From the NCBI GenBank assembly GCA_032718475.1, contig JAUCBJ010003414.1, positions 1 to 64,000 of the forward strand: a stretch of 64,000 bases of DNA. Reading direction: 5' to 3'. The translations under genes and the position numbers were made by a program. The notes below the pieces were generated by a model. That model was not told the origin of the DNA. It saw only the letters and a list, made by a program, of their open reading frames with translations, and searched no databases. Each line of letters begins with the position of its first letter. The stretch's first letter is position 1. Source of the DNA: Nemertoderma westbladi. Taxonomy: Eukaryota; Animalia; Xenacoelomorpha. Positions 5,200-45,352 of this stretch are shown here, piece by piece.

Positions 5200-5831
5200 A
5201 TGAAAACAGTAAGTAAGACTGTTTTCACCAATCGAAATATAAACTATTTACAAAATACTTCTAAATCTACTGGTGGGGCCTAAAATATAAAATAATCACT
5301 ACCTAATTATTGCATACTTAATATTGCAGGTACAGCGTAAATACAATCTATCATACATACAAAATACAAATTTACCAATTAACTTTAGTGCATAAAATAC
5401 AAAAAAAGCTTTCGGTTAACAAGATAAGCAAATTAAACAAATCAGAACAAATCAAACAAATAATTTCAAGTTTTCAATAATCTTTATATATTGCAAATAT
5501 ACATAATAAATTTACCAAATTAAATCAGTCTTATAGAATAAACATAATACGCTAATATCTTTCAAATAAGTCTTAAAGTGTCCTCCTGACGAGCTAAAGT
5601 TCGTCCTGCTGGTCTGGATATCTTCTCCTGAGCACTAATTGCTAACGGTAGGCTCTCAAGCCTTCCTTCTCCATCTCACTCCTCCAAAACCAACGTTCAA
5701 TATAAATACCCAAATATAATATCCAAATATAAATATCCAATATAAATATCCAATATCAACATCCAAATAAAATATCCGAATATAATATCCAATTGGTAGG
5801 CTCGCAAGCCTTCCTTCTCTATCTCGCTCTC

Positions 5832-8495
5832 CTATTCCTTGGCCGAATGGGCTCGTACACGCCCTCTATTACGATTGGGTGGTGGTCGGGATCGAACTGG
5901 ACTCGGACTTCGGTGTCGAGCTGTCGGTGGTTCCAAAACGCTAGGAAAGGGGACGACGGGAGTTTTGCACATCCATCGTGCGCTCAGTCCTCTAAATCCT
6001 CGTCCGATTCCAATTGTTGGCTTAACATCGGATCGAGTCTCCACAACGCTGGGAGGAAGTCGAAAGGGTGGGACTGTTCCGTCCGCTGACACCTCGCTCT
6101 CTGATGTCGTCTGAATTCTAATGGGTTCCGGCAAAGCGTATCCTGTCCCTCAGCATTGTTCTCTAGCGAGGGAAACCGTGCCCCGAGTCATCCAGAGTTG
6201 CGACTTCGATGTTGTCCTCTCGGCGATATTTACTACCTTCTTTATCCCTTGTCCGGCCTTCTGGGCTCTAAGTATACGAAGTTGCGGATCATCCTGTGGG
6301 TGACGCGTCTTTTCGGCTAATGGCGTGGCCTTGAAGCCAGTCTCACGCAAAACGTCCGTCTCGTCTAAAATACACGAGGTTACGCGTTTGTGATAAAATG
6401 CGCTCCTGTATGCCCAAGCTATCGAATGCCAGGCTCCTCGATTCCGCTGTTCGACTCGCAATTTGTCGAATTCCCTGGCGGTAATCTTGTTCACCACAGT
6501 TTGTAAGTTCCAAGTGTTCTTGTTGTCGCGGTGTACCTGTAGAAAGTAGTCCCGCACAACCTTAAATCCGCTATACAATGGCAATATATCCAGCACCTCC
6601 AAGAGTTCATCATATTGAGGCATAGCTGACACGTATCCTTCCTTCGACATTGTGAGAGGGTTTACGGCCCAAAATCCCAAGTGTGCTCTCATAGGGAAAC
6701 GGCGTCGCTGTGTCGATACATGCTCATCTGCTAGATTCTCCCAATGGTCGAATAGCTGTCGAATGATTTTAACTGACATGTGCTCATAGGGGATGTCCCT
6801 AAGTTGACATTCGGATGCCCTATGACCTTTAATATTACAATATGTGCACTGCGCCACGAAATGCCAGCAAGTGTAGAAAATGTGCGAACGATGATCCCCG
6901 CACCAGTTACATACTAAGTCCGGTAGATATATGTGTTTCGCTCCGCATTTCTTTGTGTGGTGGCCAGTTGCCCCGCATCTGCCACAAATAGTGTTGGCAG
7001 GGTACCAAACTCGCTCATACTCAGTTCGCGTCTTCCTCGGAAGGTTCTCTATCTCTATGAGTTGCCGCAACGGTTCATCTATTATCGCAAACTCGGTTGG
7101 ATCCACATCGTCGTGATGGGGGGTAGGCTCGCGAGCCTTCCAGGATCCTTCTGGGCCTTTGAATTCTGCGTGGCGTTCCCCGTCGTAGGGTACTAACGTT
7201 AACATCGATGGTCTGTCGACTAGGGTTCCCGCGTGAGTGAGATAGATGTCCCTGAAAACGCTAAGTCCCGCTCGCGTGAAAACTTTGCAGTGCACATCGG
7301 TGTTGTAAAAGGGTTGGAGAAATGGGCGGAATACATCAGTATGCGTCCTTCCTCCGTCGTAAAAGGTATGTCCTTCACCGAGACATAACGGATGTCGCTT
7401 TAGAGTCCTAGACACTACATCGGCGATGAAACAAACATTTACCGAAGATTCTATCGCCAAATAGTATTGCAAGATTATTCGTGGAGGTGAAGTAATCGCC
7501 CAGTACACGCAACCTCGCCACTTTAGCTGTGACTCGAACTCGTTTACGCCGGGGGTATCTCCCTCTCCGTATATGTCCGTGTATTTGCTCCTCTTACTCT
7601 CCTTATAATCCCAACTAAACATTAGGTATGAGATATAACCCGTTCCATTTTTAGCGTGTTATACTCCCTAAAATATCCTCGCTCAATAGCCCAAAGCAAC
7701 AATGGTCTAGTATCCACGTATGGCATAGGCAATCGATCCTCTTCCGTGGGCATTCCTGCGAAATCGCTAATAAGGTCATCCCGTACACTGGATCCGATCT
7801 TGACGATGCTCTTATCAAGCACAAACGTCTCGTACGGCCTTTGGCAACATTCTAGCTTCTATGCTACAAGCCAGGTCCATGGATTTAACTATCCGTTTTA
7901 TCATCGCGTGTCTTTGCGTCGTTCCTTCCGGCATAGGCATCTTTCTGTCGCTCCTCTGTCGGCTGAAGACATGTAACACGCCATCTGGTGCTCGAATCTG
8001 TATGGTCTTCGAAGTGAGGCTTTGCTGATGGCTTCCTCCTTCATTATTGTAAAACATAAAACCATTCTCCTTCAGATATTGGCTAGTCGCGTCCCAATCG
8101 TCGAGTAAATCGTCGGTAGGGTTCCAAATTCTCCCTATTGACTTTTCATCATCGAAACTAATAGGTTTACCAGTCCAATTGGTCGCAATATCGGTGTCGG
8201 TCTCAAACGTTCCGACTCCAATCCATAATCGAATCATTTTCGTTAGATATCCTCGCAAGATACAAGGTGCGATATCCGTCCCCGCGCGATCCACTTCCTT
8301 AAAGTCCGTAATATGTGGAGGCACATTGCGTACGATTTTCTGAACTATCGTTCTATGCAACTCGGCTGACTCTAACACATTACCAAAGGTAACCGATGGG
8401 GGGAAATCCAGGTTCGAAATGATCTCCGGGTGTTCAACTGTAGGAATCTCATAAGTTGTCTCCTCTCGGGTCGGTATACTAATAGAGCTCGGGTG
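5832..8495 (-). pseudogene. Accessory ORF of family A: putative DEDDy 3'-5' exonuclease, three Cys/His knuckles and Arg/Ser/Pro-rich tail (two frameshifts, one stop)
   Basis: ORFs 7815-8378, 7622-7822, 6150-7622 and 5832-6134 join up; motifs ISFDDE, TIQIR...VF, LPKAVRDV/LDKSIVKIGSSVRDD, YVDT, W...LQYYLAIE; CGRCGATGHHTKKC, CNWCGDHRSHIFYTC, CTYCNIKGHRASEC; the stop at 6150 is a Gly codon in copy A2. Confidence 0.6.
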
Positions 8496-8503
8496 TCATC
8501 TCC

Positions 8504-9319
8504 TTAGGTTCGGTTTGATCTTGGGATATCCAGTAAAATGGTAGGCTCGCGAGCCTTCCGCTGAACTCCTCGATCTCGCCTTTCTCGTACGCCTTTTACG
8601 CCCTGTAGGCTCAAAGCTTCCCGTTTCTCTTGCGTCGACTTATTAGACTCGTCCACTACCATATTGTAGACGTCTGGTTCGACTAATTTAGGTTCGTAAA
8701 TAATGATCTCACCCGCGTTCGGTCCACTCATCTTGAACGAATGGTACGGATTCGTCAAAGGGTATCCGCCTTCTTGGTAATGCAGACTTTGGTGGTATGA
8801 GCATCGCGCTAATATCGGCTCGGGGTTTTCCGAGTTCAATCGCATAGGAATCGCGTTGTCTTGCTCGCGCATACATGCTCCACATTTGTAAAACAGTTTG
8901 TATATGGAGAACGCGTCCTTTGTCTCTGGATCCGCTCCTCGAGCGTGTCTATAAAGATGCATTCCATCGAATTCGTCCCTAGCTGCAGGCAAGGGTTCGT
9001 TCACCGTCAAATATTGCAGTGTATGATATAATCGGCGTATCTCCGTGTCTGGATCCTCGCAAATGTCACTGGCATCGCATAACGCATACAACGCATTGAA
9101 CTCCGCGCGTAATTCCTCCACTCTTTTGTTATAAGCGTCCAATCGCTGTTTTGTAACATTCGGGTCCGCCTTGGATTTAGCGAGCTTGGCTGTACTCCTA
9201 GCCATACTCTCCACTCCAAACATGCTAAAGTTTTTAGCTCCATAACGATTAAACGGCGCCTGGTGCTCCTGTTCCTGCGTAAATCCCTGACGTAACTCCT
9301 TATAAATCTTCTCCGCCAT
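8504..9319 (-). CDS. First accessory ORF of family A, unknown 271-aa protein with CxxC...CxxH
   Basis: ATG in good context (ACAATGG), open 271 codons, same strand as gag/pol, no signal peptide or TM segment visible; possibly the N-terminus of the downstream accessory frame. Confidence 0.6.
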   Translation of the reverse strand: MAEKIYKELRQGFTQEQEHQAPFNRYGAKNFSMFGVESMARSTAKLAKSKADPNVTKQRLDAYNKRVEELRAEFNALYALCDASDICEDPDTEIRRLYHTLQYLTVNEPLPAARDEFDGMHLYRHARGADPETKDAFSIYKLFYKCGACMREQDNAIPMRLNSENPEPILARCSYHQSLHYQEGGYPLTNPYHSFKMSGPNAGEIIIYEPKLVEPDVYNMVVDESNKSTQEKREALSLQGVKGVRERRDRGVQRKAREPTILLDIPRSNRT

Positions 9320-10054
9320 TGTATACGCGTATATATGGTTACATATCGTTACGTTTCTACTAGATGAAGCGCAAAATAGAGGTTAGATGTGAGGTGACTT
9401 AGAGTTTGTCGGCTTTTGGCTCAACTTTGCTCTAAAACCCCAACCCATTTGCCTAATGACTTCGGGTTCGCGTGATTTCGCACTGGCTCCTAATCCAACA
9501 AATTGTGCCGATAAAAAACGAATTCTGGGTAAACTAGCCGCGAGTCTAAAATACTCACCTTTTAATTTCCCAAACTACATTCCCAAATAAATAATGCAGT
9601 CGAGAATTAATTCAGTCTAAATAATAGTAGACACGACTACATAGAACAAGGCCGGTTTTCTTTTCCAAAAAAATTTGTCGGTAGGCTCGCAAGCCTTCCA
9701 TCCGCTCTTGTCCTCCCCAATTTTAATTTTTATCTAGCTGTATTCTAGAATTCGCATTCACTGGAGAATCATTTTTCTTAAATTTAAATCCAACTGAATG
9801 GATTTGTCTAATAATTTTGAAAATTGTCTCACTTGTGGGTTCCAAGTGGAATTCCATTCCTACTGTACACACAATCCCGCTCCTATGTGATACATAAGGG
9901 TACTACCCTCCATGTTCACATATAAAGACAATGGAATTCCACCGCTGTCTCTATCTACAGTGAAGAGGATTACAAATGCACATACAGTAATACAAAATAC
10001 TAAATTACTAAAATACGGTAAGGCTATGTGGCAGCCATCAAGGGTCCCACATCT

Positions 10055-10972
10055 CTATTTACTAATGTTGGGTGGAGATTTGTAGTCTCCTGTCTCGTTT
10101 CTAGTCTCCTCAAGGAGTACGAGACGTTGTACAGGCCTATCTACAGTATGTCCGTCGATAGTCCTTACAGTAACTGTCCTTACTACACCAGATGTAGGGT
10201 GCGTGGTCAAAATGACTCCAGTCAGCCAAAACCGTCGTTTCAGATTGGCTTCAGCCAATAAAACAAAGTCACCGCGTCTTAGACATCGGGTATTAAGATA
10301 CCAAGAGGTTCTGGTTGAAATAGAGGGCAAATAATACTTCTGCCATATTTCCCAGAATTTGTTTGCAAGTAGCTGAGTGATTTTCCAAGCCTTGTTGCCG
10401 TATCCGTCGCTATTAATGGGTACCGAAGTGGGCAACAATGTCATCGGCGCCTGCATAAGCAGGTGCGCTGGTGTCAAAGCAAACTGTGCGTCGTTATTGT
10501 CTGGGATCAAAGCGATCGGCGTGTGTTCAAAATCGCTTCGAATTCTATTAACAACGTCGTCAGTTGGTCGTCTGTCAAAATGTGTTGCGTCGGTATTACT
10601 TTAGCCATAGCTGTTTTGATTGAGCCAATCAGCCTTTCCCAAACGCCGCCTCTCCACGGACTGTCTGGAGTGTTGAAGTTCCAAACAATACGGTAAGGAC
10701 ATAGTTCCTCGGAAATCTGGTCTTGGTCCAACTTTCTTAAAGCTCTGGTTATCTCATTCCATGCACCCACAAAGTTTGTCCCTTGGTCACAATAAATGGA
10801 TTTGACCAATCCACGTCTAGCGATAAATCGCCGTAAGGCTAGGATAAAGGCATTGGTGGTCAAGTCTGTCACACGCTTTATATGGACAGCTCTGCTGGCC
10901 ATGCAAGTGAAGATTAATCCCCAACGTTTTACCTGTCCTGTACCCTTCCGCGTTTCGCGATAATGAGTCCAA
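10055..10972 (-). pseudogene. BEL/Pao integrase core and C-terminus (frameshifted)
   Basis: IYCDQGTNF, PWRGGVWERLI, EAILNTR, LTPAHLL, FWEIWQKYYL, W..GVI, VVRTVTV, RPVQRLVLLE. Confidence 0.92.
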
Positions 10973-13146
10973 ATCCGTCATCTCGGTGAACTGTTTGGCG
11001 CTGATCGTTTCTGCTGGTTGCAACGTGGGTTTCCGAAAGGGTGTTTCTCGTGGAGGATTGTCAATGTATTGGTTCGTCGATCTTTCCTCCCGTTTGTAAT
11101 CAGCTGCTGCTGTCGCTCCAGTACGGAATATTTCCCTTTCCGTCGAGTCCGAGTTGCTAGATGAGCTATTTAGCTATGGTTGGCGGGTTCACGTCCGGCG
11201 TATTACCTTTTGTTGGGCTCGTTGTGGTCTGGAATCTACGGTTCTCCGTCGTTCGGTAGGCTCGCAAGCCTTCCACGAAGTCGTAGGTCTCATTAAACAT
11301 TGTTCGATCCTGTGGGTACTACCTACATCCGTCCTCCTCCGTTGTTCGGTAGGCTCGCAAGCCTTCCACGAAGTCGTAGGTCACGTCGAACATTGTGTCA
11401 AAGGTCTAATAAAGCAGTCGGGTTTCGTAGTCGGTCTATAAATAACTGGGTTCGTACAGCACGTCACAGGTTTAACTGCTAACGGCTTACTTAACTGTTT
11501 AATTGTCATAAACGCAGGTTCCTCTCTTCCTACAAGTAGACTACGACTTACTGTAGGTGGACTAGTTACATTACCTGCCAAAATTGGCGATGAAGTTGCC
11601 CTAGGTTGCGGTATTTCCATCACAACAAACCTGTTACCTTGAGTCGAGCGCACAGGTGTTATTTCCTTAGGTTTCGTAACAAAGACCAGGTTTATCAGAG
11701 TCGTGGGTTTGAGCATAGGAATCCCTTGTAGAAAACGTTTGCAGTAATCCTCGATGAACTCCTCTCCTCGATCTATCGCTCCCACACTTCCTTCCTCAAT
11801 TCGCTTCTGTATCCCGCGATATCGAGCTTCCAAGCGATCCAGGGCAGACAAGTTGTGTCCAGCTCACGATCTTATAGATCTATCTCTCGCGTCGAGTTCG
11901 AGGTCCGCTTGCGCGTTCGCTGCCTCGCGTGATCTACGATTTAGTTCGAACTGTAGTTGCATCTCCTTTTCGTGTCGATCTGCTACTTGTTGTTGTGCCG
12001 CTAACTCCGCTTCTTGTATAGCTAGTCGAGCGTTAATTTGTCTCACTTCCAACTTGGCGCGTGCGTCAGATGCCACTTTCTTCCGAGCTAACTCCGCTGC
12101 GTTTACTGTCGCAACTCGTCGGCTGCATGCAGCTTCTTGTGCCAAATCTTCCTACAGTCTTCTTAGTTCCAAGGCTTCGAATTCTGCTTGCGCTTTGAGT
12201 TGCGCAATCCTTGCCTCGTCTTCTCTTTGTTGTTTTTCTCCCTCGATGGCGATCTGTGCCATCTGCCGTTGCGCTTCTCCCTTGATGACTTGTTGTCGGC
12301 GTGCAACTTCCTGTTGTTGTCGAGTAATTACAGACGCTGTTCTACTAACGTCGCCAACGTCGCTCCGCATGCTAACAAATGATCTATCCAGTGGTGGATT
12401 TTGGTAGGCTCGCGAGCCTTCTGTAGCAAGAACTTCCGTCGTCCCTCGTGGTTCGACTTCCGGTTCTTCGATCGGTACGCCGTTTCTATGAAGAAAATTG
12501 GTGAGCGTCTCTAACCTCCCGTCCAGGCAGTATAGTTCTTCTTCCTCTTCGGGTTGTAACAACGCGTCCGAAACTGACTCACCTAGCAGTTGGTCGAACT
12601 CCTCCTGTTGAGCCAATCTTATTACTGACTTAAACTGGATAAGGCTTTCCCTCGCACTTACCAACTTATCTATTATCTTTACCTGAGTAAAGTTGTCGAC
12701 ACGCAACTCTGCAAGTTCGTGTAAACCTTTAAGTTTATCTACGGAGGCATATACCCTACTTTCTATCCTTACCTGTAAGGTGTAGAACTCGTATCTCGAC
12801 ATCAGGGCGGTTAACTCGCGTAAAACGCGAAAACCTTCTCTGAGGTTTAGAGTAATCTGGGCCACGTGTCCTCCTATACTTCAATGACATTTTCTTGGCT
12901 TCCCGCCAAGCTTACCATGTCTGGTTCCCGTGACCTGGTCTGCGGGACTGTAGGGAAATCCTCGATCCTGCCGTCGCCACGCATTGCGGCTTCCGGTATT
13001 TCTCTTCGGGGTACCGGCGACGCACGCGGTGTGACATCGGTGGAATCTCGGGTTCTCCTTCTCGGTTTGTCTACTGTCGATCTGTCCGGTTCGCACGAGT
13101 CATAGTCTGTAGGTGGGTATCGAGTCGAGTATGGTGTGTCACTCAT
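10973..13146 (-). pseudogene. A1 gag N-terminal half (frameshifted, coiled-coil)
   Basis: ORFs 12874-13146, 12152-12865, 11864-12145 and 11381-11851 are homologous to A2 gag 36776-38590; fused directly to integrase by a deletion near 10972. Confidence 0.8.
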
Positions 13147-14130
13147 GTCTTATTATATACGTCAAGTACGGGTAATAAAATATCAAAGTATCGGAATGTC
13201 GAAATGTCAAACTTACCTTGGTATATATATAGCATATATATACCCTAACCGGTACAAATAAATCAACAAAGTCAGAATGTCGAAATGTCAAAATGTCGAA
13301 ATGTCCAAATGTCAAACTTACCTTGATATATATATATATATATCATATATATACCCTAACCGGTACAAATAAAACTAACAAAGTATATAATAAAATATGT
13401 AATAATCTAGCCTACCGGCTAAATTTGTATGAATAAGTGAGATAACGGTATACGTTACCAAAATGTAGATCAACAAGTACAAATAATAGGCAAAACAGCA
13501 ACGTCTAACGGGAAATAAGTACCAACAACACTACTAATTAGACAGTGAAACCCACAAATTTTGAGTACTACTGTGCTTTTAAGTTTGAACGACACGAGTC
13601 GTAAAACTTACGCTCCTTTGATCTTCCAGTCATGCAAATTCCTAAATACAAACCGGACGTGGGTCGTTCCGTTTTTCGGCGTCGCGGACAAATTTTGTGT
13701 CTCCCAAACTTGCGAAAAGCGGTCTAATCCTCGAAGCAGTCCAGAAATGAGTCCTTGAGTCCTGAAAAGTCGAAGGTCAGAGTTTTACTTCTACTCTACG
13801 AAAAATCTTCCTAGGTACCGATACAACTTGGTCTTTAAACCCTATTTACCTTTTTAAGTACTGAAAAGTAACACCGCACACACACGGCGTAAAACAAATT
13901 GCTACTAACTAACTATTAGCTAGTCAAATATTAAATACGAAACTACTAGCTACCCTAAAGCCTACTGAAGCAGGGGACGTTCTACAAATTACTAATTTTA
14001 CTAATTTTAAATTGTAAGTATCTCCTACTTTTATAATAGCTAACAATATATTTATATCTCACTTTAGGTAAGATATATCTACCATTTGCAAATTACAATT
14101 TGCAAATTAAACAATAAATATACCTCACTT

Positions 14131-16310
14131 TGAGATCCTCTACGGTAACGGCTATCCTACGGCCTACATATCTACTAGTACGAAGCTATAGAGTATCTCT
14201 AACCGTAAAGTCCAGTAGTATACCGCTTACCAGATCCTAGTAACGATGTATCTTACCGTAAGATCTAGTAATGAAACGGGCTCGTACAGTATCTGACAAC
14301 AAATCCCAGTCCAGGGTATCTAAACAAACAGATACAATACACAAACGACTACTGGCGAGGAGCAGAGCCTAGTGTCTATTCATGTACGTGAGCGGGTCTA
14401 ATGCCTACAAACTAGACAAAAGGAAACCTGTCCTCTAACCAGTATGGCAGATGTACAGTTACAGTAACAGACCAAACTCACGGGAAAACAATCCCCGCGC
14501 AGCGAATCCTAAGTATCGCTGACAGTCCTAAATACCATAACTTGCCGCGGTGTGATTTATATGGTTTATATACGAGCTAGTGGGTTAACATACCTAGCGT
14601 AACAATACTGATCCCCCTGTACGAAATCAGTCTAAAGAGGGTCGTGCCTAATGTAACAATACCGCTGCTCTGACAAAACAACACTTTAATAACAAAATAA
14701 ATACTCCTTCTTGCCGTAACTAAATATCAGATCCTAAAATTACAAAATACCAACAGTGAGTTATATATATATTCTGCCTAAAGTAACCTAACGTGCGCTA
14801 TGTAGTAGAACTCTAAGGGTAAATATGTTTTAGGGCGTGTGTATGTGGGTGTGTTACAATAAAACAATTTTGGTGTATATCATTTTACTAGGTTTTAGTG
14901 ATTTTCTGACCAAAACAATACCGTGCGCTAGCTACGAAAATAAGCTAGTCGCGTTTTGTAGAACTTTATACTTATAAATGACGTCAAAGCTCTCTCCTTC
15001 CTATCCACAACTCAACCGGGCAATTACGGTGTTAGTAACTACACCCGTGATCGGCACAAATACCAGATTCTGGTTGTAAGATAAGAAATAGGGGTTAATC
15101 GCTACCATATGTTAGCTGATCTGGTATACAAATTTGATTCTAGAACTTTGTTGCCGCAGTGGTTAGCAGCAATACCTATCAGTACGTGGCAAGGTGCGGT
15201 AGGATATTAATAAACCTCCCAAGGCCAAGCGGTGTGCCGGTAGCAGAAATACTCCTTGCCTGATCAAATAACTAAGGTTCAGACAGGGGGGGGGGGGGGG
15301 GGGGGGTACTAATGTATGTTCTACAAAGCGAACCGGTACCAAACGGTCAGTGCTTCGAATCACTAAATTATGGAACATATGCTGTCCTTACTCGCGTACT
15401 GACGAACGGCAATAGCTCACACCTGTGAGGTATACAGGTTAACCCAGGGATTTGTAGTACTGACGGGGGGGGGGGGGTTCTGTCAGAATATAATTATTTG
15501 ATCCTAAATTTTGCGGTGCGCCAGAATGGCGTCACACTTACCCTGATCTATAGGTCTTACGTCGGGCAAGGGCGTCAAACAAAGTCTTACCTTCCTCTGA
15601 AATCGGCGCTGCATGGCAAGGTGGAGTATTTCGAAGGGCGAAGGGGGTGCGCGGTCTAATCCAATGTGGGCGCTAGCGTGTTGTGGACATCTTTCCCTGC
15701 GTTGCTGATGGCCTAACGGTCTAGGCGGCCATCTCCTCAATGCTTGGCTGTCCCAAAGGTGGACGTTCGAAAATATACATGTTCAGAAGTTTACAGTATA
15801 TTTACAGTTTAGCAAATGATTTATCAAACAGATTTATAACAAAACAAATACTAAGTGTCTAAATGAAGTAAGGATTGATATAACAAGAATGGTGATAACC
15901 GAAGGCAAACCAGCCCTTTATATACTAAACTGGGATATAGAATCCGCTAGAACCTTCCAGAGTATTCCATGGCCTCACATTGGAGCAATAAGATGTTCTA
16001 TGCCCTATGATTGGCCCAACTCATCGTTCCATGTGTTGTACGCACCTCATTGGTTTATCAAATTGTACCAAATGAAAATAAATTGCCCCAAAATGCAAAT
16101 TTCCCGACTGGGATTCGAATTCGTAACCTATCTGTAATGCAACCAACGCCTTAACCATCTGACCACTACGCCATGAGATTAACTACGGGTTTTATGTGTA
16201 CCAATATGAATAGGCATATTACATTACTGTAATTTAATCAAAATTCGTCGGATTTTAGAAAGTTTTTACGTTAAACTACAAATGCTATCTTATAGTGAAA
16301 TAATCCATCA
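14131..16310 (-). repeat. A1 5' LTR (2180 bp, most complete LTR copy)
   Basis: TGA...TCA ends; aligns with 25595-27214 and 45353-47303. Confidence 0.88.
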
Positions 16311-25594: not shown

Positions 25595-25732
25595 TGATGG
25601 ATTATTTCACTATAAGATAGCATTTGTAGTTTAACGTAAAAACTTTCTAAAATCCGACGCATTTTGATTAAGTTACAGTAATGTAATATGCCTATTCATA
25701 TTAGTACACATAAAACCCGTAGTTAATGTCAT

Positions 25733-25816
25733 GGCGTAGTGGTCAGATGGTTAAGGCGTTGGTTACATTACAGATAGGATACGAGTTCGAATCCCAGTCG
25801 GGAAATTTGCATTTTT
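25733..25816 (+). ncRNA. tRNA-like Pol III cassette inside the family A LTR (also 16090-16172 minus and 45491-45574)
   Basis: A box TGGTCAGATGG, B box GAGTTCGAATCC, T5 run just downstream; cloverleaf pairing is poor, so not a functional tRNA. Confidence 0.5.
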
Positions 25817-25848
25817 GGGCAATTTATTTTCATTTGGTATAATTAGAT

Positions 25849-25990
25849 AAACCAATGAGGTGCGTTCAACACATGGAACGATGAGTTGGGCCAATCATAG
25901 GGCATAGAACATCTTATTGCTCCAATGTGAGGCCATGGAATACTCTGGAAGGTTCTAGCGGATTCTATGTCCCAGATTTAGTATATAAAG
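25849..25990 (+). promoter_or_regulatory. LTR Pol II promoter: three CCAAT boxes and TATATAAA
   Basis: CCAAT at 25851, 25891 and 25922; TATATAAAGGG at 25982; conserved in all three long LTR copies. Confidence 0.6.
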
Positions 25991-27796: not shown

Positions 27797-28475
27797 GTTG
27801 GTACTTATTTCCCGTTAGACGTTGCTGTTTTGCCTATTATTTGTACTTGTTGATCTACATTTTGGTAACGTATACCGTTATCTCACTTATTCGTACAAAT
27901 TTAGCTGGTAGGCTAGATTATTACATATTTTATTATATACTTTGTTAGTTTTATTTGTACCGGTTAGGGTATATATATGATATATATATATATCAAGGTA
28001 AGTTTGACATTTGGACATTTTGACATTTCGACATTCTGACTTTGATGATTTATTTGTACCGGTTAGGGTATATATATGCTATATATATACCAAGGTAAGT
28101 TTGACATTTCGACATTCCGATACTTTGACATTTTATTACCCGTACTTGACATATATAATAAGACATGAGTGACACACCACATTCGACTCGACACCCACCT
28201 ACCGACTATGACTCGTGCGACCCGGACAGATCGACAGTAGACGAACCGAGAAGGAGAACCCGAGATTCCACCGATGTCACACCGCGTGCGTCGCCGGTAC
28301 CCCGAACGGAAATACCGGAAGCCACAATGCGTGGCGACGGCAGGATCGAGGATTTCCTTACAGTCCCACAGACCAGGTCACGGGAACCAGACATGGTAAG
28401 CTTGGCGGGAAGCCAAGAAAATGTCATTAGAAGTATAGGAGGACACATGGCCTAGATTACTCGAAACCTCGGAGA
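27797..28475 (+). repeat. ~680-bp direct repeat (5' UTR plus gag start), second copy at 36398-37086
   Basis: Both copies start GTTGGTACTTATTTCCC and end AAACCTCGGAGA, and they flank the foreign 7.9-kb block. Confidence 0.9.
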
Positions 28476-36386: not shown

Positions 36387-36775
36387 TCTATACGCTGGTT
36401 GGTACTTATTTCCCGTTAGACGTTGCTGTTTTGCCTATTATTTGTACTTGTTGATCTACATTTTGGTAACGTATACCGTTATCTCACTTATTCGTACAAA
36501 TTTAGCCGGTAGGCTAGATTATTACATATTTTATTATATACTTTGTTAGTTTTATTTGTACCGGTTAGGGTATATATATGATATATATATATATATCAAG
36601 GTAAGTTTGACATTTGGACATTTCGACATTTTGACATTTCGACATTCTGACTTTGTTGATTTATTTGTACCGGTTAGGGTATATATATGCTATATATATA
36701 CCAAGGTAAGTTTGACATTTCGACATTCCGATACTTTGATATTTTATTACCCGTACTTGACGTATATAATAAGAC

Positions 36776-39700
36776 ATGAGTGACACACCATACTCGACTC
36801 GATACCCACCTACAGACTATGACTCGTGCGACCCGGACAGATCGACAGTAGACGAACCGAGAAGGAGAACCCGAGATTCCACCGATGTCACACCGCGTGC
36901 GTCGCCGGTACCCCGAACAGAAATACCGGAAGCCGCAATGCGTGGCGACGGCAGGATCGAGGATTTCCTTACAGTCCCGCAGACCAGGTCACGGGAACCA
37001 GACATGGTAAGCTTGGCGGGAAGCCAAGAAAATGTCATTAGAAGTATAGGAGGACACATGGCCCAGATTACTCAAAACCTCGGAGAAGGTTTTTGCGTTT
37101 TACAAGAGTTAACCGCCCCGATGTCGACATATGAGTTCTACACCTTACACGGTAAGGATAGAAAGTAGGGTACATGCCTCCGTAGATAAACTTAAAGGTT
37201 TACACGAGTTGCGTGGCGACAACTTTACTCAGGTAAAGATAATAGATTAGTTGGTAAGTGCGAGGGAAAGTTGTTGTTACAACCCGAAGAGGAAGAAGAA
37301 CTATACTGCCTGGACAGGAGTTTAGAGACGCTCACCAATTTTCTTTGTAGAAACGGCGTACCGATCGAAGAACCGGAAGTCGAACCGCGAGGGACGACGG
37401 AAGTTCTTACTATGGAAGGCTCGCGAGCCTACCAAAATCCACCACTGGATAGATCATTCATTAGCATGCGGAGCGACGTTAGTAGAACAGCGTCTGTAAT
37501 TACTCGACAACAACAGGAAGTTGTACGCCGACAACAAGTCGTCGAGGAAGAAGCGCAACGGCAGATGGCACAGATCGCCATCGAGGGAGAGAAACAACAA
37601 AGAGAAGACGAGGCAAGGATTGCGCAACTCAAAGCGCAAGCAGAATTCGAAGCCTTGGAACTGAGAAGACTGGAGGAAGATTTGGCACAAGAAGCTGCAG
37701 CCGACGAATTAGCATGAGTTGCGACAGTAAACGCAGCGGAGTTAGCTCGGAAGAAAGTGGCAAGATGGAAGTGAGACAAATAAACGCTCGACTAGCTATA
37801 CAAGAAGCGGAATTAGCGGCACAACAACAAGTAGCAGATCGACGCGAAAGGGAGATGCAACTACAGTTCGAACTAAATCGTAGATCGCGCGAGGCAGCGA
37901 ATGCGTAAGCGGACCTCGAACTCGACGCGAGAGATAGATCTATAAGATCGCGAGCTGGACACGACTTGTCTGCCCTGGATCGCATGGAACCTACAGTAAG
38001 TCGTAGTCTACTTGTAGGAAGAGAGGAACCTGCGTTTATGACAATTAAACAGGTAAGTAAGCCGTTAGCAGTTAAACCTGTGACGTGCTGTGCGAACCCA
38101 GTTATTTATAGACTGACTACGAAACCCGACTGCTTTATTCGACCTTTGACACAATGTTCGACGAGACCTACGACTTCGTGGAAGGCTTGCGAGCCTACCG
38201 AACAACGGAGGAGAACGGATGTGGGCAGTACCAACAGGATCGAACAATGTTTAACGAGACCTACGACTTCGTGGAAGGCTTGCGAGCCTGCCGAACGACG
38301 GAGAACCGTAGATTCTAGACCTCAACGTACTCGACAAAAGGTAATACGCCGGACGCGAACCCGCCAACCACCTTATCCGGACGATAGCGACTCATCTAGC
38401 GACTCGGAGTCGACGGAACGGGAAATATTCCGTACTGGAGCGGCAGCAGCGGCAGCAGATTACAAACGGGAGGATAGATCGACGAACCAATACATCAACA
38501 ATCCTCCACAAGAAACACCCTTTCGGAAACCCACGTTGCAACCAACGGAAATGATCAGTGCCAAACAGTTCATCGAGATGACGGACCGACTAGCTCAACT
38601 CGAAGAACGATTCGAAGCGCAACCGTCGGATCGATCACAAACCAGCGTGGAGATAGAACAACCTAGACAACATCGACCACCAAGGAGAGAACAGGAGACT
38701 AGACAGACTCTGACCCATCGAGAAGAAGATCCCGTTAATATTTCCTACCGACGAACAATGCGCAGAATGGAACGACTGGACGACGCAACCGAACAAGGAC
38801 GCAGACAGTTAGATTTAGTTAGCGAGATTGCGAAGTTTGCGGCTAGACACGGATTACCGGCATAACAACCGCTGAAGTTCTCTGGCAAAGTGAAACACTG
38901 GCATACACTGGTAGACTACGTAGAGTCCCAGATTGCTAAGTGTGCATTCACCTCGACGGAGAAGTTGAATTACTAGCTCCAAGTCCTGTCTGGTGAGCCG
39001 AAACGATTAGCGGAAACCTTCATTGGTGTTCCAGATGCCTTTGAGTTGGCGTACGACCATCTATATTCGATTTACGGCGGCAACGTCGCCATGGCTAAAT
39101 CCATTATCGAAGACCTCTGCAGAGGAGGCAGTATTTCGAAACCGATCGATCTTCTATGACTCGCGGACGAAATCAAGAATGCTATAGAGACTTTACGGTC
39201 CATTGGACAACTCGAATACGCTAACGCACCGACAGTTCTCATTCGAATAATCGGTAGACTTCATCATAGACTACGACGAGAATGGCGACGCATCGAGTAC
39301 CAGCGTGAAGAAGCCGGCGGGCTATTGAAACTCACCGACGTCTACCAACTGATTTCACGGGAGGCCGTAATAGAGACTCGATCGAACTATACTGATCACC
39401 ATATAGCGGCAGAAGGGATAGCTATTTCTGCGCCGACTCGGACTAAACCATTTCCGACGAACGCGAAAGCCGTTACCTATGCCACCCCAACTGAGACTTC
39501 TAAAGTTCTGACGCCTATCGGCATCTAGCAGCCACGACAACAGTTGCCGGCGGACTTTGTGGGATGCTCATACTGCGAGCGGAACGGCAGGAACCATAGC
39601 GGACATAAACTACGTGGATGTCGCGCTTTTAGGGAGTTAGGAATCGAAGAAAGAAGACTTCAGATTCGATCTTTGGATTCTTGTTGGAGATGTACGAAGC

Positions 39701-42700
39701 CAGGACTCGTCCGGAAGGATTGCCCGAGCGACGATACATGTCCTCTATGTGGACGTAACCACAACGCGTTACTTCACACGACTAGTCATACTCCGACCAA
39801 ATGCTTTCGACGAGAGTATCCAGATAAAGCGGCTAGATGCGATGCGCTTTATAAAGAGCGTGCGCCGCGCGAGATTCGTACTTTCTATACAGACTGTATG
39901 GATCAGTCGGGATCATCGGACGAGGACGAGGAGGAAGACGACACATTTTACGTGCATGCGGGGGAGGAACAGCCATCAGTAACACTCCTCACACAGAACC
40001 AATTGAAAGGGTTTAGCGTGATTCCTATAAAGATTACCGGAACCAGAGGGAGCAAGCGTATATACGCTATCTTAGACTCTGCGTCATCGCATAGTTATGT
40101 CGACGAACAAGTAGCCGATGTGGTTACGGACATGAGTCAAGGTAAGACTGCTCAGTATACTGTAAGCAGCATGCATGGTAAGCGAGCGATTCCAGTGACA
40201 AGAGTAAAACTAACCTTATACACTCTTCTTTCCAAAGCGGAACACAGCAAGGAGGAGCGCTCATTACTTCCGGTAAAAAATTTGACCTTTGCAGCTACGA
40301 AGGACTTTAGTAACTTGCTCGGCCCTGTGCCAGAGCAATCACCGGAAGATCATAAGTATTTCCGACACCTTGGAATACCGGAATGTCCTGTTAATTATCG
40401 TTCAATCACGATGTTAATTGGGACAGACCAGTTTAACTTACATCAGGTATGGGAGACACGCCCATCTGTTATTACAGCGGGCAACCCCTATGCATGTAGA
40501 ACTGGTATATATATAATATATATAACTTGGTATACTTAGAGCACCAGTGCGTTCACTAGAGGTAAGTGACCAGGAGGACAACGTTTTGAGTACGTGTAGT
40601 TTATTGACTACTACGATGGATAATTCTCCTTCACACTCCTGTGGTCCAATTGTACAGACTGCATTACGACAGACTTGCGTCGCTAACGCAGACGTAACCG
40701 ATACTGACGTAACTGATCTAGACACGACCACACGACCTCTGGCTTACAACTACTTGCAGTAAACCAGGTTGTATTGACTACTGAAGACCAAAGGGTTGTT
40801 GCCGTGGATTACTCGATGAACAAGGTTTTTGGAAGGCTTGCGAGCCAGCCTACCGAAAAATCCGAAGGTCATTGACCCCACCCACCAGCCTTCGACACCG
40901 GTCATTGACCGGTTTTCAAACCGCCACACGACGATTCGACGCCGACTAGTGACACCAGAAGGCTTGCGAGCCTACCAGACACATTGAAACTAGCCACTGC
41001 AGCGGACGAAGACGTGGACGAGGACCATGGCGCAGTGCAAGCAGCGCTTGACCGACTGCTGACTCAACGGACCATTAAATGGTTGGAACAGGACTCAGCA
41101 GAACCCGGTAGTTACGAGACCGCTATGTCAGAACAGGAAAAACGGTCATTAAATATTATGAGAGATACCATTCGCCAGACCGCGAATGGCCACTACGAGG
41201 TTGGCATATTGTGGTGCAATGGACAAACTAAACTCGTTAACAACTACCCACTTGCTTTGAGGCGACTCAAATCAATAAGGCAGCGATTGTTGCGTGATGA
41301 GACGGCCCATATGCAATACAATGCGCAACTTCAGACGTATCTCCAAAAGGGATATGCCATTAGGATGTTAAATCCCGAGGTAACCACAGATCAGACATAT
41401 TACCTGCCACATCATTTTGTTCGACACCCGGACAAACCTGGCGAGGTGCGTGTAGTCAACGACTGCGCTGCGCTTTACCAAGGGATGTCTATGAACAGCG
41501 AATTGATGGACGGGCCGAATATGAATAATTACCTCATGGTAGTCCTAATGCATTTTAGACAACGCAAAGTGGCATTCACCTGTGACATAGAGGCCATGTT
41601 TCACCAGGTTAAGGCTTTGGAGCGGGACAGGGACAGCTTGAGGTTTCTTTGGTATCCGGACGGAAATTTAGAACTTCCGCCAGAAACTTACCAAATGCAG
41701 GTAAGAGTTTTTGGAACCAGGGACAGCCCCAACTGCACCATATACGCCTTAAAGCAGACAGCATTGGACAGACAAGACCAATTTGACCCAGAAGTAGTTC
41801 GGACAGTGGAACGAGATTTCTACGTGGATGACGGCCTCAAGAGTTGTGACACTCTGGAGTGCGCTACGACCGTAGCACACCAACTCCAGGATTGTCTTGC
41901 TGAGGGCGGATTCCGCCTTATGAAGTTCGCTTCCAACAAACCCGAACTAGTGAACTCATTCGACCCGATGGATCGCAGTGGAGGTGACTTAGACTTAGAC
42001 CTAGAACCTCTACCTACGACCAAAGTATTAGGACTTAGTTGGGACCCTAACACCAACAATTTTAGGGTACATGTAAGGTCCAACGACCAGACTAGACCTC
42101 TCACTAAGAGGACTTGCTTATCGACCATGAATTGATTGTATGACCCATTGTGTTTCATTAGTCCAGTGATCCTACATGCTAGGATCATACTCCGCAGCAT
42201 TTGGCAAGCCGGACTGGAATGGGACGATCCCATCCCAGAAAAGTTAGCTGAGCAATGGAGGGACTGGGAAGCCCAACTGACATTCCTACAAGACTATACC
42301 ATACCAAGGGTATACTTTCCTTTGCAGACCACCTTTCCTGCCGATTTAGAGCTTCACAGATTTAGTGACGCTAGCAAGGATGGATTGGGGGTTACTTTAT
42401 ACCTTAGACGACAAGTGACATCGGACAGCTACGAAGTGTCTCTCGTTACTTCAAGGGCTAGAACAATGCCGTTGAAGTATATGACTCTAGTTCAACGCGA
42501 GCTGGAGGCTAACTTGAAGGTCACATATTGGACGGATGCGACGTTGGTACTTTGGTACATAAACGACGAATTATCAATTGCGATATTTCGCATGAGAGTT
42601 CACAGCGATCAATCAAGGTAAACAGATCAAGTCTTCACCGATTTTGAGTTGGAGTCCGATTATTTACAGGGGCTTACTTTGTCACAAGTCCAGACTCCAG

Positions 42701-43578
42701 AACATTGACTTTGCACTAGACTTTAGGTATCCTATCATCATACCGCAACACCATGAGTTACAGCGCGCTATGATACTGGACGCACATGTACAACTCAAAC
42801 ACGTGGGTAGACATCACTGCCTATCACACTTACGATCGAGGTTTGTACTGATTGGGCCTAGCAAGGCACTGAGTTCGGTAACACGGAACTGTATGATTTG
42901 TAAGAAGGTGCACGCGAGAATAGGACACCAAGAAATGAGTGAACTACCACTAGTGAGATTACAGGCGTTTAGACCCCCTTTCACTGAGACAGGGATAGAC
43001 TGTTTTGGACCTATAATCGCGAAACGTGGAAGGATACAGGTAAAACGTTGGGGATTAATCTTCACCTGCATGGCCAGCAGAGCTTTCCATATTGAGCGTG
43101 TGACAGACTTGACCACCAAAGCCTTTATCCTAGCCTTACGGCGATTTATCGCTAGACGTGGATTGGTCAAATCCATTTATTGTGACCAAGGGACAAACTT
43201 TGTGGGTGCACGGAATGAGATAACCAGAGCTTTAAGAAAGTTGGACCAAGACCAGATTTCCGAGGAACTACATCCTCACCATATTGTTTGGAACTTCAAC
43301 ACTCCAGACAGTCCGTGGAGAGGCGGCATTTGGGAAAGGCTGATTGGCTCAATCAAAACAGCTATGGCTAAAGTATTACCGACGCAACACATTTTGACAG
43401 ACGACCAACTGACGACGTTGTTAATAGAAATTGAAGCGATTTTGAACACACGACCGATCGCTTTGATCCCAAACAATAACGACGCACAGTTTGCCTTGAC
43501 ACCAGCGTACCTGCTTATGCAGGCGCCGATGAAATTGTTGCCCACTTCGGTACCTGTTGATAGCGATGGATACGGAAA
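36776..43578 (+). pseudogene. A2 gag-pol (stops and frameshifts)
   Basis: Three BEL Cys/His clusters, protease ILDSASSHSY, RT YYLPHH/DIEAMFHQ/FYVDD, RNase H FSDAS, integrase HHCC, GIDCFGP, DQGTNF, WERLI. Confidence 0.93.
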
Positions 43579-44687
43579 CACATATCTCTACCGGACTTAG
43601 TATGCAACTGGTGCGGGGATCAACGTTCGCACACTTTCTACACTTGTTGGCGTTTCGTGGCGCAGTGCACGTATTGGAATATTTAAGGTCATAGGGCATC
43701 CGAATGTCAACTTAGGGACATCCCCTATGAGCACATGTCAGTTAAAATCATTCGACAGCTATTCGACCATTGGGAGAATCTAGCAGACGAGCATGTATCG
43801 ACACAGTGACGCCGTTTCCCTATGAGAGCACACTTGGGATTTTGGGCCGTAAACCCTCTCATAATGTCGAAGGAAGGATACGTGTCAGCTATGCCTCAAT
43901 ATGATGAACTCTTGGAGGTGCTGGATATATTGCCATTGGATAGCGGATTTAAGGTTGTACGGGACTACTTTCTACAGGTACACCCCGACAACAAGAACAC
44001 TTGGAACTTTCAAACTATGGTGAACAAGATTACCGCCAGGGAATTCGACAAATTGCGAGTCGAACAGCGGAATGCCTGGCAGGAGCCTGGCATTCGACAG
44101 CTTGGGCATACCGGAGCGCATTTTATCGCAAACGCGTAACCTCGTGTATTTTAGACGAGACGGACGTTTTGCGTGAGACTGGCTTGAAGGCCACGCTGTT
44201 AGCCGAAAAGACGCGTCACCCACAGGATGATCTGCAACTTCGTATACTTAGAGCCCAGAAGGCCGGACAAGAGATAAAGAAGGTAGTAAATGTCGCCGAG
44301 AGGACAACATCGAAGTCGCAAATCCGGATGACTCGGGGCACGATTTCCCTAGCTAGAGAACCACGCGGAGGGACAGGATACGCTTTGCCGGAACCCATTA
44401 GAATTCAGACGACGTCAGAGAGCGAGGTGTCAGCGGACGGAACAGTCCCACCCTTTCGACTTCCTCCCAGCGTTGTGGAGACTCGATCCGATGTTAAGCC
44501 AACAATTGGAATCGGACGAGGATTTAGAGGACTGAGCGCACGACGGATGTGCGAAACTCCCGTCGTCCCCTTTCCTAGCGTTTTGGAACCACCGACAGCT
44601 CGACACCGAAGTCCGAGTCCAGTTCGATCCCGACCACCACCCAATCATATTAGAGGGCGTGGACGAGCCCATTCGGCCAAGGAATAG
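43579..44687 (+). pseudogene. 3' remnant of the family A accessory ORF
   Basis: Homologous to A1 5832-6935; fused to integrase by a deletion at ~43578. Confidence 0.85.
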
Positions 44688-45352
44688 GAGAGCGAGATGA
44701 AGAAAGGAAGGCTTGCGAGCCTACCGATTGGATATTATATTCGGATATTTTATTTGGATGTTTATATTGGATATTTATATTGGATATTTATATTTGGATA
44801 TTATATTTGGGTATTTATATTGGATGTTGGGTTTAGAGGAGCGAGATAGAGAAGGAAGGCTTGCGAGCCTACCGTTAGCAATTAGTGCTCAGGAGAAGAT
44901 ATCCAGACCAGCAGGACGAACTATTGAGCTCGTCAGGAGGACACGTTAAGACCTATTTGAAAGTTATTAGCGCATTATGTTTATTATATATTTAAGACTG
45001 ATTTAATTTGGTAAATTTATTATGTATATTTGTAATATATGAAAGATTATTGAAAGCTTTGTAATTATTTTTTTGATTTGTTCCGATTTGTATTGTTCTG
45101 ATTTTGTTTAATTTGCCTATCTTGATAACCGAAAGCTTTTTTTTGTATTTTATGCACTAAAGTTAATTGGTAAATTTGTATTTTGTATGTATGATGGATT
45201 GTATTTACGCCGTACCTGCAATATTAAGTATGCAATAATTAGGTAGTGATTATTTTATATTTTAGGCCCCACCAGTAGATTTGGAAGTATTTTGTAAATA
45301 GTTTATATGTCGATTGGTGACAACAGTCTTACTTACTGTTTTCATGGAGCGG

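Follow-up and report, generated by a model that had tools for sequence, protein, structure and literature searches.

Results

Two broken copies of a giant Bel/Pao retrotransposon

The window, by which we mean the whole 64 kb stretch of DNA that was analysed, contains two large copies of the same metazoan-type Bel/Pao LTR retrotransposon (family A). Copy A1 (5139..16310, minus strand) comprises the 5' LTR (16310-14135), a gag-like region, the integrase core, DUF5641, three accessory ORFs and the 3' untranslated region (UTR), and ends about 54 nt into the 3' LTR; it is without the C-terminal end of gag, the protease, the reverse transcriptase (RT) and the N-terminal integrase block. Copy A2 (36398..47303, plus strand) is 5'-truncated and carries gag, knuckles, protease, RT (Peptidase_A17), the H2C2 part of the integrase and the 3' LTR (45353-47303), but lacks the 3.45 kb bearing DUF5641 and the accessory ORFs. 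The deletions in A1 and A2 are reciprocal and both copies are broken; with their stops, frameshifts and large deletions they are dead. A further fragment of family A, A3 (25594..28475, plus strand), consists of an LTR and the 5' leader. The full transcript of family A is likely about 15 kb long, and the CpG observed/expected ratio within the element is about 1.15. Among the homologues found, the closest relative shows 48% RT identity. Both gag and the 502-aa accessory ORF show CCHC knuckle patterns, and the ORF gives a sub-threshold match to zf-CCHC (E 0.03); a domain search of the accessory ORFs found no RNA-binding or exonuclease domains.

A 20-nt motif dispersed through the internal sequence

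A first-pass annotation of this DNA had described a 20-nt hairpin, GGAAGGCTYGCGAGCCTACC, repeated through family A and always on the transcript strand. Scanning the 64 kb window for this motif yielded 15 loci at ≤2 mismatches against 0.01 expected by chance; allowing up to 3 mismatches, the scan gave 27 strand-hits representing 15 loci, a number of hits reached by 0/100 shuffles. Because the motif is near-palindromic, 12 loci matched on both strands, while the other 3 matched on a single strand. The better match lies on the minus strand at all loci in A1 and on the plus strand at all loci in A2, which is the coding (sense) strand of the element at 15/15 loci, as the annotation had claimed, and across 8 independent flank contexts. 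The positions listed there were recovered with one correction, the copy placed at 40958 starting at 40957, where the first base is A. All 15 loci fall within about 18 kb of internal sequence of the two copies. The remaining 46 kb of the window, which includes three LTR copies of family A, a second Bel/Pao family (B) and LINE RTs, contained no motif in a scan to 6 mismatches or with a covariance model, and fragment A3 has none. The reported absence of the motif from the LTRs and from family B therefore holds in the window, where we found no copies outside the internal regions of family A. With the covariance model the 15 sense copies scored 29-42 bits, and no non-motif match exceeded 10.8 bits. 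A search of the element for other dispersed 12-mers with at least 3 copies found only two local tandem repeats.

Merging A1 and A2 leaves 10 distinct sites in the window (a to j), in line with the earlier estimate of at least 10. Base 9 is either C or T (C-type and T-type copies) and the other positions of the 20-mer are invariant across sites. T-type copies occupy 7/10 of these sites, and copies are exact unless stated. Site a, a C-type, lies within the gag-like ORF at 12403..12422 in A1 (minus strand, one mismatch at base 1) and at 37414..37433 in A2 (plus strand). Sites b and c, both T-type, are 93 nt apart and share a 60-nt duplicated block; b lies at 11348..11367 in A1 (minus) and 38180..38199 in A2 (plus), and c at 11255..11274 in A1 (minus) and 38273..38292 in A2 (plus, one mismatch at base 18). 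A second cluster, d/x/e, is contained within 150 nt and is represented by A2 on the plus strand. Here site d (T-type, 40831..40854) lies in the protease-RT linker and carries a 4-nt internal duplication, and site e (T-type, 40957..40976, one mismatch at base 1) lies at the N-terminal edge of the RT ORF. Between them, at 40908..40911, other genomic copies have a 36-nt motif-bearing segment that A2 is without; this eleventh site, x, is also T-type in the one contig shown. The following three sites are in A1, on the minus strand. Site f (T-type, 9680..9699) lies in non-coding spacer DNA that separates the end of the integrase from the first accessory ORF; site g (C-type, 8540..8559) is near the C-terminus of a 292-aa accessory ORF; site h (C-type, 7122..7141) is in the accessory ORF of 502 aa and upstream of the CCHC knuckle patterns there. 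Finally, sites i and j, both T-type and 148 nt apart, lie in the AT-rich 3' UTR, i at 5795..5814 in A1 (minus) and 44706..44725 in A2 (plus), and j at 5647..5666 in A1 (minus, one loop mismatch) and 44854..44873 in A2 (plus). The flanks of different sites are unrelated, as had been noted for most of them, except at b/c and at i/j, where 15 nt are alike upstream; this leaves the 8 independent contexts. Decayed or covarying copies were not found in the window scan to 6 mismatches or with the covariance model to E 10. A degenerate copy annotated at 8604..8623 (minus strand) is doubtful. Although intact in the 3' half, it can be recognised in the 5' half only with a gap, and with 10 ungapped mismatches it was missed by both the ≤6-mismatch scan and the covariance model (E≤10).

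The constraint acts on nucleic acid

The motif is read in three frames, EGSRAY at site a, (W/R)KA(C/R)EPT at b (WKACEPT in A2), c, g (RKAREPT) and h (WKAREPT), and RRLASLP at e; the last adds to the two frames already annotated. Sites d, f, i and j are outside any ORF of at least 100 aa. Site e is beyond the region aligned to homologous RTs in 119/120 alignments and therefore lies in a linker, and the motif-encoded peptides were found in 0/179 homologous proteins. Since copies occur in three frames and in non-coding DNA, the constraint on the motif is on nucleic acid and not on peptide, which bears out the original suggestion.

Conservation between copies

At 5/5 common sites A1 and A2 agree in being C-type or T-type, so that the identity of each site is inherited. 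A1 and A2 differ at 3/100 motif positions vs 137/1525 flank columns (binomial P 0.018, with overlapping flanks and gap columns included), and this lower divergence is a weak sign of constraint. The near-identity of the motif copies is in part due to the youth of the A1 and A2 insertions. Sequencing runs contain thousands of family A contigs (10318 in X1). Across other genomic copies the majority form of site d is without the 4-nt duplication, and a contig of X5, a run labelled as another organism, spans site d in this majority form. At sites f, g and h we found no near-fixed difference from the family majority. In one X4 contig the match is limited to a 43-nt island around site b, with dissimilar sequence on either side.

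Predicted folds and self-pairing

The annotated fold, GG-A-AGGCU[YGCG]AGCCU-A-CC, was reproduced as a single-copy hairpin with a YGCG loop and a computed energy of -7.6 kcal/mol, equally stable on the antisense strand. The hairpin is part of the minimum-energy fold in 7/9 60-nt contexts and is missing at f and i. The stems are invariant over all copies examined, so that no covariation supports a structure. Any pair of copies is also predicted to anneal over 20 bp, with two A.A mismatches, at a computed -31 to -35 kcal/mol, and the hairpin and homodimer computations together support the self-complementarity noted earlier. Computed homodimer energies are -34.9 kcal/mol for the C-type on both strands, and -30.7 (sense) and -22.9 kcal/mol (antisense) for the T-type. 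By this calculation G.U pairs preserve the T-variant duplex on the sense strand but not on the antisense strand. As DNA, the C-type is a perfect palindrome of 14 bp. In predicted minimum-energy folds of the sense strand, each copy joins its neighbour in 3/3 clusters tested (b-c, z -3.3; i-j, z -8.5; d-e, z -3.3). In A2 the predicted b-c pairing is in cis, and pairing of i with j is predicted to form the base of a long stem rich in AU. The antisense b-c fold consists of two separate hairpins (z -1.7).

Discussion

A proposed self-complementary RNA element

These observations suggest that the motif likely works on the RNA of the element, as a self-pairing or protein-binding packaging tag; RNA would be its functional form. 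As a tentative best explanation, which we hold to be quite possible although far from assured, we propose a multicopy self-complementary RNA element that would serve to dimerise, compact or package the genomic RNA. Copies are predicted to pair with one another on this RNA. In trans, such contacts would tie two co-packaged RNAs together at numerous positions; in cis, they would hold local domains closed and make the transcript, likely about 15 kb long, more compact. The zinc-knuckle proteins of the element would probably help, so that the RNA becomes dimerised and packaged. Copy-to-copy pairing would also freeze the motif sequence, since any copy that changed would presumably pair less well with all the others.

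Several points count against this explanation. The hairpin of a single copy has only modest stability, no greater on the sense than on the antisense strand. The motif is absent from the 5' leader and LTRs of family A, and it is in the 5' leader that the dimerisation and packaging signals of retroviruses and Ty1 are known. UNCG-type loops, a class that the UGCG loop of the motif fits, tend to be closed and to kiss poorly with other loops. Moreover, identity at 20/20 bases in unrelated contexts requires a copying mechanism. This explanation supplies none. The 20-mer occurs in about nine unrelated contexts, and local duplication explains only the pairs b/c and i/j.

Other explanations

One alternative is that the motif is a neutral by-product of reverse transcription. 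The hairpin would stall RT and cause template switching and local duplication, so that a functionless 20-mer spreads in one orientation. A single orientation would follow directly if copying took place on RNA or cDNA, sites are clustered (b/c, d/x/e, i/j) with flanks partly duplicated at b/c and i/j, internal deletions and indels are abundant in family A, and template structure reportedly stimulates RT indels. We nevertheless consider this origin unlikely. Homologous switching between copies cannot give two new flanks, and 8 contexts in the window are unrelated; the deletion breakpoints of A1 and A2 are not at motif sites; and the decayed copies expected of unselected sequence in an active lineage are absent from the window. 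In addition, every site is in a linker or in non-coding DNA and leaves the open frames intact, a pattern suggesting that selection has filtered them.

The copies could instead fold singly and be bound by a host or element protein (a Gag knuckle or accessory protein) with no pairing between copies. They would then be dispersed signals for packaging, export or stability, comparable to Rev/RRE, the CTE or dispersed packaging signals. The hairpin forms in most local folds (7/9), nearly all copies retain the A.A mismatch and the YGCG loop, features of a sort that proteins read, and G occupies loop positions 2 and 4, as in tetraloops bound by retroviral nucleocapsid knuckles. Knuckle patterns exist in gag and one accessory ORF, and for ssRNA viruses dispersed packaging signals are an accepted concept (PMC6281560). 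However, a protein-bound stem normally tolerates changes, yet 7/7 stem pairs of the motif are invariant with no variant tail, and folds of longer stretches favour the duplex between neighbouring copies. The first-pass annotation had proposed a Rev/RRE-like system with the element's own knuckle/exonuclease protein as partner. This proposal has a weak footing. The CCHC patterns in the 502-aa ORF stand, but their zf-CCHC match is below threshold, the accessory ORFs yielded no RNA-binding or exonuclease domain in our search and the sites are dispersed instead of forming a single structured response element. Binding of single hairpins alone is in our judgement rather improbable.

On the integrated copy, the motif might be a palindromic DNA site for a dimeric host or element DNA-binding protein (for example a CGCG-type BEN-domain factor, an insulator or a silencer). 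The perfect DNA palindrome of the C-type and the CpG ratio of the element are consistent with this, as is the motif core CTCGCGAG, which forms the middle 8 of TCTCGCGAGA, the reported BANP motif. But the T-type, found at most sites including x, breaks the DNA palindrome and one CpG and keeps sense-only RNA pairing; a symmetric site has no reason to keep one orientation at 15/15 loci; and the LTRs, where transcriptional control is expected, hold no copies. We regard a DNA-level role as improbable. Still less probable is a link to small RNAs, in which copies or their 20-bp duplexes would give rise to host small RNAs, be targeted by them or soak them up. Their 20-22 nt are in the small-RNA size range, inter-copy duplexes are by computation double-stranded RNA, and the conserved palindromes of maize Sirevirus LTRs offer a proposed precedent (PMC4728375). 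On the other side, eleven perfect targets bring the element no benefit, and the duplexes are mismatched and short for Dicer-type processing. A peptide motif, such as a repeated protease cleavage site at domain boundaries, would agree with the frame common to 4/6 distinct ORF-embedded sites and with sites near such boundaries, but two further frames at a and e, four non-coding sites, invariant synonymous positions and an Arg to Cys change caused by the C/T choice leave it almost no probability, the three frames and non-coding copies refuting it in practice.

Comparison with known systems

For a self-complementary element that pairs between genomic RNAs, parallels exist in the HIV-1 DIS and the MLV GACG-loop hairpins, which are retroviral genomic RNA dimerisation sequences. 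Ty1 PAL1/PAL2 are likewise self-complementary dimerisation sequences of retroelement genomic RNA (PMC6844567). All of these resemble the motif in being palindromic, sense-strand RNA. In these systems two genomic RNAs pair with the help of Gag or a knuckle chaperone and the hairpin can convert to an extended duplex, a behaviour in which the likeness of the motif is a prediction. They differ in that their short palindromes number one to three and are placed in the 5' leader, whereas the motif is a 20-nt unit with about 11 copies spread over gag, linkers, accessory ORFs and 3' UTR and is absent from the leader. Rev/RRE and the CTE are retroviral cis RNA elements with repeated protein-binding features on unspliced RNA. 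The motif is like them as a cis RNA element in which an accessory protein may take part, but the RRE and CTE form one compact structured region near the 3' part, while the sites of the motif are scattered and we identified no Rev-like protein in the element.

The maize Sirevirus LTR palindromes (PMC4728375) are likewise conserved, hairpin-forming and found within an LTR retrotransposon family. They belong to the LTR cis-regulatory region, vary in sequence by locus and are siRNA hotspots, whereas the present motif has no LTR copies and one fixed sequence. The packaging signals of ssRNA viruses (PMC6281560) resemble the motif in being many small stem-loops with a common recognition motif, distributed along the viral genome and also within coding sequence. 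Those signals are degenerate with variable stems, whereas the copies of the motif are identical and their carrier is an LTR retrotransposon.

Distribution and specificity of the motif

We searched both strands of the window with the near-palindromic 20-mer GGAAGGCTYGCGAGCCTACC, allowing up to 3 mismatches, and obtained 27 strand-hits where 0.01 are expected; 27 was reached in 0/100 shuffles. These hits define 15 loci, of which 12 were matched on both strands, because the motif is nearly palindromic, and 3 on one. Eight loci (5647-12422) match better on the minus strand and seven (37414-44873) on the plus strand, which is at 15/15 loci the sense orientation of the carrier element, the LTR retrotransposon family A. 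All of them lie inside the approximately 18 kb of internal sequence of its copies A1 and A2. The coordinates reported in the first-pass annotation were all confirmed by the mismatch scan, except 40958, which is 40957. A degenerate copy had also been listed at 8604; its 3' half is kept, but the site was missed by a scan allowing up to 6 mismatches and by a covariance model at E <=10, and its status as a motif copy is doubtful.

The window holds 10 distinct sites (a to j) and other genomic copies hold one more (x), giving 11 per element, dispersed over about 11 kb. Arithmetic on the alignments places the window sites at approximately 1.7, 2.8, 2.9, 5.4, 5.5, 8.8, 10.0, 11.4, 12.7 and 12.9 kb of the undeleted internal region; the first copy is thus found ~1.7 kb into this region, and the LTRs and 5' leader are without a copy. 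The flanks of the sites are unrelated save for two pairs, b and c, which share a 60-nt duplicated block, and i and j, which have 15 nt in common upstream, so that the window contains 8 independent contexts.

With up to 6 mismatches allowed, no motif copy was found outside the A1 and A2 internal regions, whether in the three LTR copies, the leader, the second Bel/Pao family (family B), the LINEs or the remaining window DNA, and the scan returned just two chance-level matches there. The covariance model, built from 14 motif copies and the hairpin structure, gave 29-42 bits for the 15 sense copies and at most 10.8 bits for any non-motif sequence in the window. This gap indicates that the motif family is discrete, with no tail of decayed or covarying relatives, and within the window both searches bear out the earlier claim that the motif is absent from the LTRs and from family B. 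Two local tandem repeats aside, the motif is the sole dispersed 12-mer with at least 3 copies in the element. A MITE-like mobile palindromic insert was rejected because 15/15 loci are in sense orientation and family A accounts for every copy in the window; inspection of the flanks by eye revealed no target-site duplication.

Outside the window, an 18-mer pattern gave 3 single matches in viral contigs, and 2 single matches to the motif were found in public metagenome contigs and 2 in public prokaryote genomes. The window has only the motif in common with the five loci from viral and metagenome contigs, and we take all of these matches as chance. No Rfam family, histone 3' stem-loop included, reached its gathering score anywhere in the window, and at E <=10 no Rfam match fell upon any motif site within 36398-45400. 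A literature search for the motif letters did not find it, and the titles and abstract openings retrieved on retrotransposon RNA signals describe no dispersed invariant self-complementary 20-mer for Bel/Pao or any LTR element.

The motif is carried by a very large Bel/Pao element

Pfam and self-comparison place family A in Bel/Pao: it combines a Peptidase_A17 domain (PF05380, 42136-42621, E 1.6e-32), an integrase H2C2 finger (PF17921, 42596-43600, E 7.4e-06), an rve core (PF00665, 10507-10977, minus strand, E 9.7e-05, below the curated cut-off) and a DUF5641 tail (PF18701, 10055-10600, minus strand, E 7.5e-20) with flanking LTRs. The nearest reverse transcriptases, at 45-48% identity, belong to Bel/Pao polyproteins from cnidarians, echinoderms, molluscs, crustaceans and fishes, and protein searches with the RT ORF returned no relative above 48%. 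A1 (16310-5139, minus strand) contains the 5' LTR, leader, N-terminal part of gag, integrase core and tail, three accessory ORFs and the 3' UTR. A2 (36398-47303, plus strand) is 5'-truncated and keeps 4.4 kb missing from A1 (the end of gag, protease, RT and the start of integrase, at A2 38585-42994), while itself missing 3.45 kb with the integrase tail and the accessory ORFs, which A1 has at 10393-6939. These deletions are reciprocal, from which alignment arithmetic gives an undeleted internal region of ~13.4 kb and an element of ~17 kb, which is very large for Bel/Pao. Numerous stops and frameshifts show both copies to be dead. The deletion ends of A1 and A2 are not at motif sites, and the motif was rejected as a recombination breakpoint.

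A third copy, A3 (25594-28475, plus strand), is an LTR-plus-leader fragment whose last 689 nt (27797-28475) repeat the first 689 nt of A2 (36398-37086); the ~8 kb between these repeats contain two LINE-type RT ORFs, and the region has been rearranged rather than formed by simple nesting of one insertion in another. The family-A 5' leader holds three close copies of the 12-mer GACATTTCGACA (13305-13206, minus strand; 36617-36727, plus strand). The CpG observed/expected ratio is ~1.15 inside family A (5139-14135) vs 0.48 at 1-5138, and the element is not CpG-depleted. The surroundings in the window are a field of other repeats, including two LINE-type RTs and family B. The latter (47304-60314, plus strand; LTRs of ~1.18 kb at 47304-48487 and 59133-60314; DUF1759 gag) adjoins the end of the A2 3' LTR and has 0 motif copies. 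Two degenerate short-tandem-repeat blocks, mutually inverted, lie in 19650-21600; beside them a 690-nt repeat (20190-20879 = 53840-54529) carries a DUF6451-like ORF. A long pentanucleotide microsatellite of CACTA type with a 10-nt period lies at 62950-63600.

Reading frames and accessory ORFs

The proposal that the motif is read in different frames and in non-coding DNA, and hence constrained as nucleic acid, held on both counts, with three frames found where two peptide readings had been named. Site a, within two ORFs (242 and 173 aa), encodes EGSRAY; the reading is (W/R)KA(C/R)EPT at sites b, c, g and h and RRLASLP at site e. No ORF of at least 100 aa covers site d, f, i or j. The peptides that the motif would encode occur in 0/179 homologous proteins. 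Site e is beyond the region aligned with RT homologues in 119/120 alignments, and by eye the other coding sites also appear to lie in low-complexity linkers.

Three accessory ORFs follow the integrase on the minus strand of A1. The 292-aa ORF (9382-8507) gave Atlas leads of at most 0.80 alone, to RING/U-box-like clusters, too weak for use, and a single-sequence structure model of the 226-aa ORF (8495-7818) had a mean pLDDT of 33. The 502-aa ORF (7658-6153) has three CCHC-like knuckle patterns; it gave no homolog in a word-indexed protein search, no Atlas match and no Pfam family above threshold. No recognised RNA-binding domain was found in the accessory ORFs beyond the sub-threshold CCHC knuckles. 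The suggestion of a Rev/RRE-like protein-plus-cis-element system is weakly grounded; such a system pairs a single compact, structured element with its own RNA-binding accessory protein, and the sites here are dispersed over ~11 kb in an architecture that is not RRE-like.

Hairpin and copy-copy duplex

The computed fold of a single copy, GG-A-AGGCU[YGCG]AGCCU-A-CC at -7.6 kcal/mol, is the hairpin drawn in the first-pass annotation. Its antisense is equally stable, and in 7/9 60-nt contexts the hairpin is within the minimum-energy fold. Stem covariation, which had been put forward as a check, has no variation to act on: the stems are invariant among the motif copies, with no covarying relatives. 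Base 9 (C or T) is the sole variable position of the motif family, and the type is site-specific, A1 being equal to A2 at 5/5 shared sites. The C-type comprises sites a, g and h; the T-type comprises the remaining seven distinct window sites and, as seen in one contig, site x. The T-type loop is UGCG (7/10 distinct sites) and the C-type loop CGCG, with a U-A closing pair; the UNCG tetraloop class has the loop U-N-C-G, and its extra-stable form is closed by C-G.

Two copies can also pair over 20 bp, with two A.A mismatches in the duplex, at a computed -34.9 kcal/mol for the C-type and -30.7 kcal/mol for the T-type vs -15.2 kcal/mol for two hairpins. The T-type antisense duplex is weaker (-22.9 kcal/mol), because G.U becomes C.A. 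In longer sense-strand folds adjacent copies pair with each other in 3/3 clusters (b-c, i-j and d-e), and the antisense b-c fold has no copy-copy pairing. The spacer between i and j (44726-44853, plus strand; 5667-5794, minus strand) is AT-rich, with ~13-nt repeats (TTTATATTGGAT-like), and is predicted to form a long stem with the i-j duplex at its base (z -8.5 vs shuffles).

The motif in other genomic copies

Family A is extremely abundant, with 10318 contigs of the public run X1 on an A2 stretch and 3525 on an A1-specific stretch. Among the best-supported matches, most copies are free of the 4-nt duplication by which site d is interrupted in A2, and a contig of X5, a run whose label names another organism, also crosses this site in the majority form. 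Among the matches listed, no near-fixed difference from the majority was seen at site f, g or h. In other copies a 36-nt segment between 40908 and 40911 contains the further motif copy, site x. An apparent joint from 40908 to 44705 was rejected as a real deletion; its short side is 23 letters, and it is best read as copy x placed on site i. In one contig of run X4 the match is confined to a 43-nt island around site b. At the motif copies shared by A1 and A2, 3/100 positions differ vs 137/1525 flank columns (binomial P 0.018; the flank count includes gap columns and some overlapping flanks), which is weak evidence that the motif may be more constrained than its flanks.

Interpretation

The motif is a real and unusual feature, a putative cis-acting retroelement RNA signal. 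Its restriction to a single strand, its independence of frame and its absence from the LTRs point to a signal that acts, or arose, at the RNA or cDNA stage. A TRS-like or subgenomic-RNA signal was rejected on the lack of a copy in the leader, and a splice site since by eye the motif has no GT/AG pair able to bound an intron. Base pairing to a fixed partner would produce such identity over 20 positions without covariation, and a palindromic motif would most simply find that partner in a second copy of itself. Our leading reading, an inference held tentatively, is of a self-pairing element in many copies, which would dimerise the long genomic RNA and compact it for packaging. The knuckle proteins of the element would be probable chaperones of this pairing, and the sequence would be frozen because each copy must pair with all others. 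In a more specific form, which is possible but doubtful, about eleven self-complementary 20-mers would let the very long genomic RNA fasten to its partner and fold back on itself at many points, as an 'RNA velcro' for dimerising and compacting, unlike the single leader dimer site of retroviruses and Ty1. Several points weigh against self-pairing: the leader, seat of known dimerisation and packaging signals, has no copy; the hairpin is modest; and the reading does not account for the arrival of one 20-mer in about nine unrelated contexts.

That arrival could be the work of template switching and local duplication, of which the motif would be a neutral by-product. We regard a neutral origin as unlikely on the whole. 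If it were the true one, the motif would still record an unusual way of copying at the reverse-transcription stage. That a protein reads the hairpin with no copy-copy pairing is decidedly unlikely. A palindromic binding site acting at the DNA level is improbable; the CGCG element, or BANP motif TCTCGCGAGA, is the candidate here, but CTCGCGAG is kept at the C-type sites a, g and h alone, the T-type sites are without it, and the bases flanking the core differ from the BANP motif. A small-RNA-related role is very improbable. The conserved palindromes of maize Sireviruses (PMC4728375) are tied to siRNAs and sit in the LTR, from which our motif is absent. A peptide motif has a negligible chance, given the three frames and the non-coding sites.

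Returning to self-pairing, cis-acting RNA signals of LTR retrotransposons are to our knowledge known in few models, such as Ty1, Ty3 and retroviruses. In these the signals sit in the 5' leader. If the self-pairing reading is true, about eleven invariant 20-mers across the coding linkers and untranslated regions of a ~17 kb element would represent a different way to select, dimerise or compact a genomic RNA of great length. The motif would also serve as a simple sequence tag for tracing the very abundant family A. By analogy, the known systems that it appears most like are the dimer-linkage palindromes of retroelements and the dispersed packaging signals of ssRNA viruses. With a dimerisation initiation site it shares self-complementarity on the genomic RNA but not the place in the leader beside the primer-binding site and packaging signal; the PAL1 and PAL2 dimerisation and packaging signals of Ty1, as outlined in PMC6844567, are in the 5' leader. 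With the ssRNA-virus signals (PMC6281560) it shares multiple dispersed stem-loops with a common motif, whereas theirs are degenerate with variable stems and those of family A are invariant.
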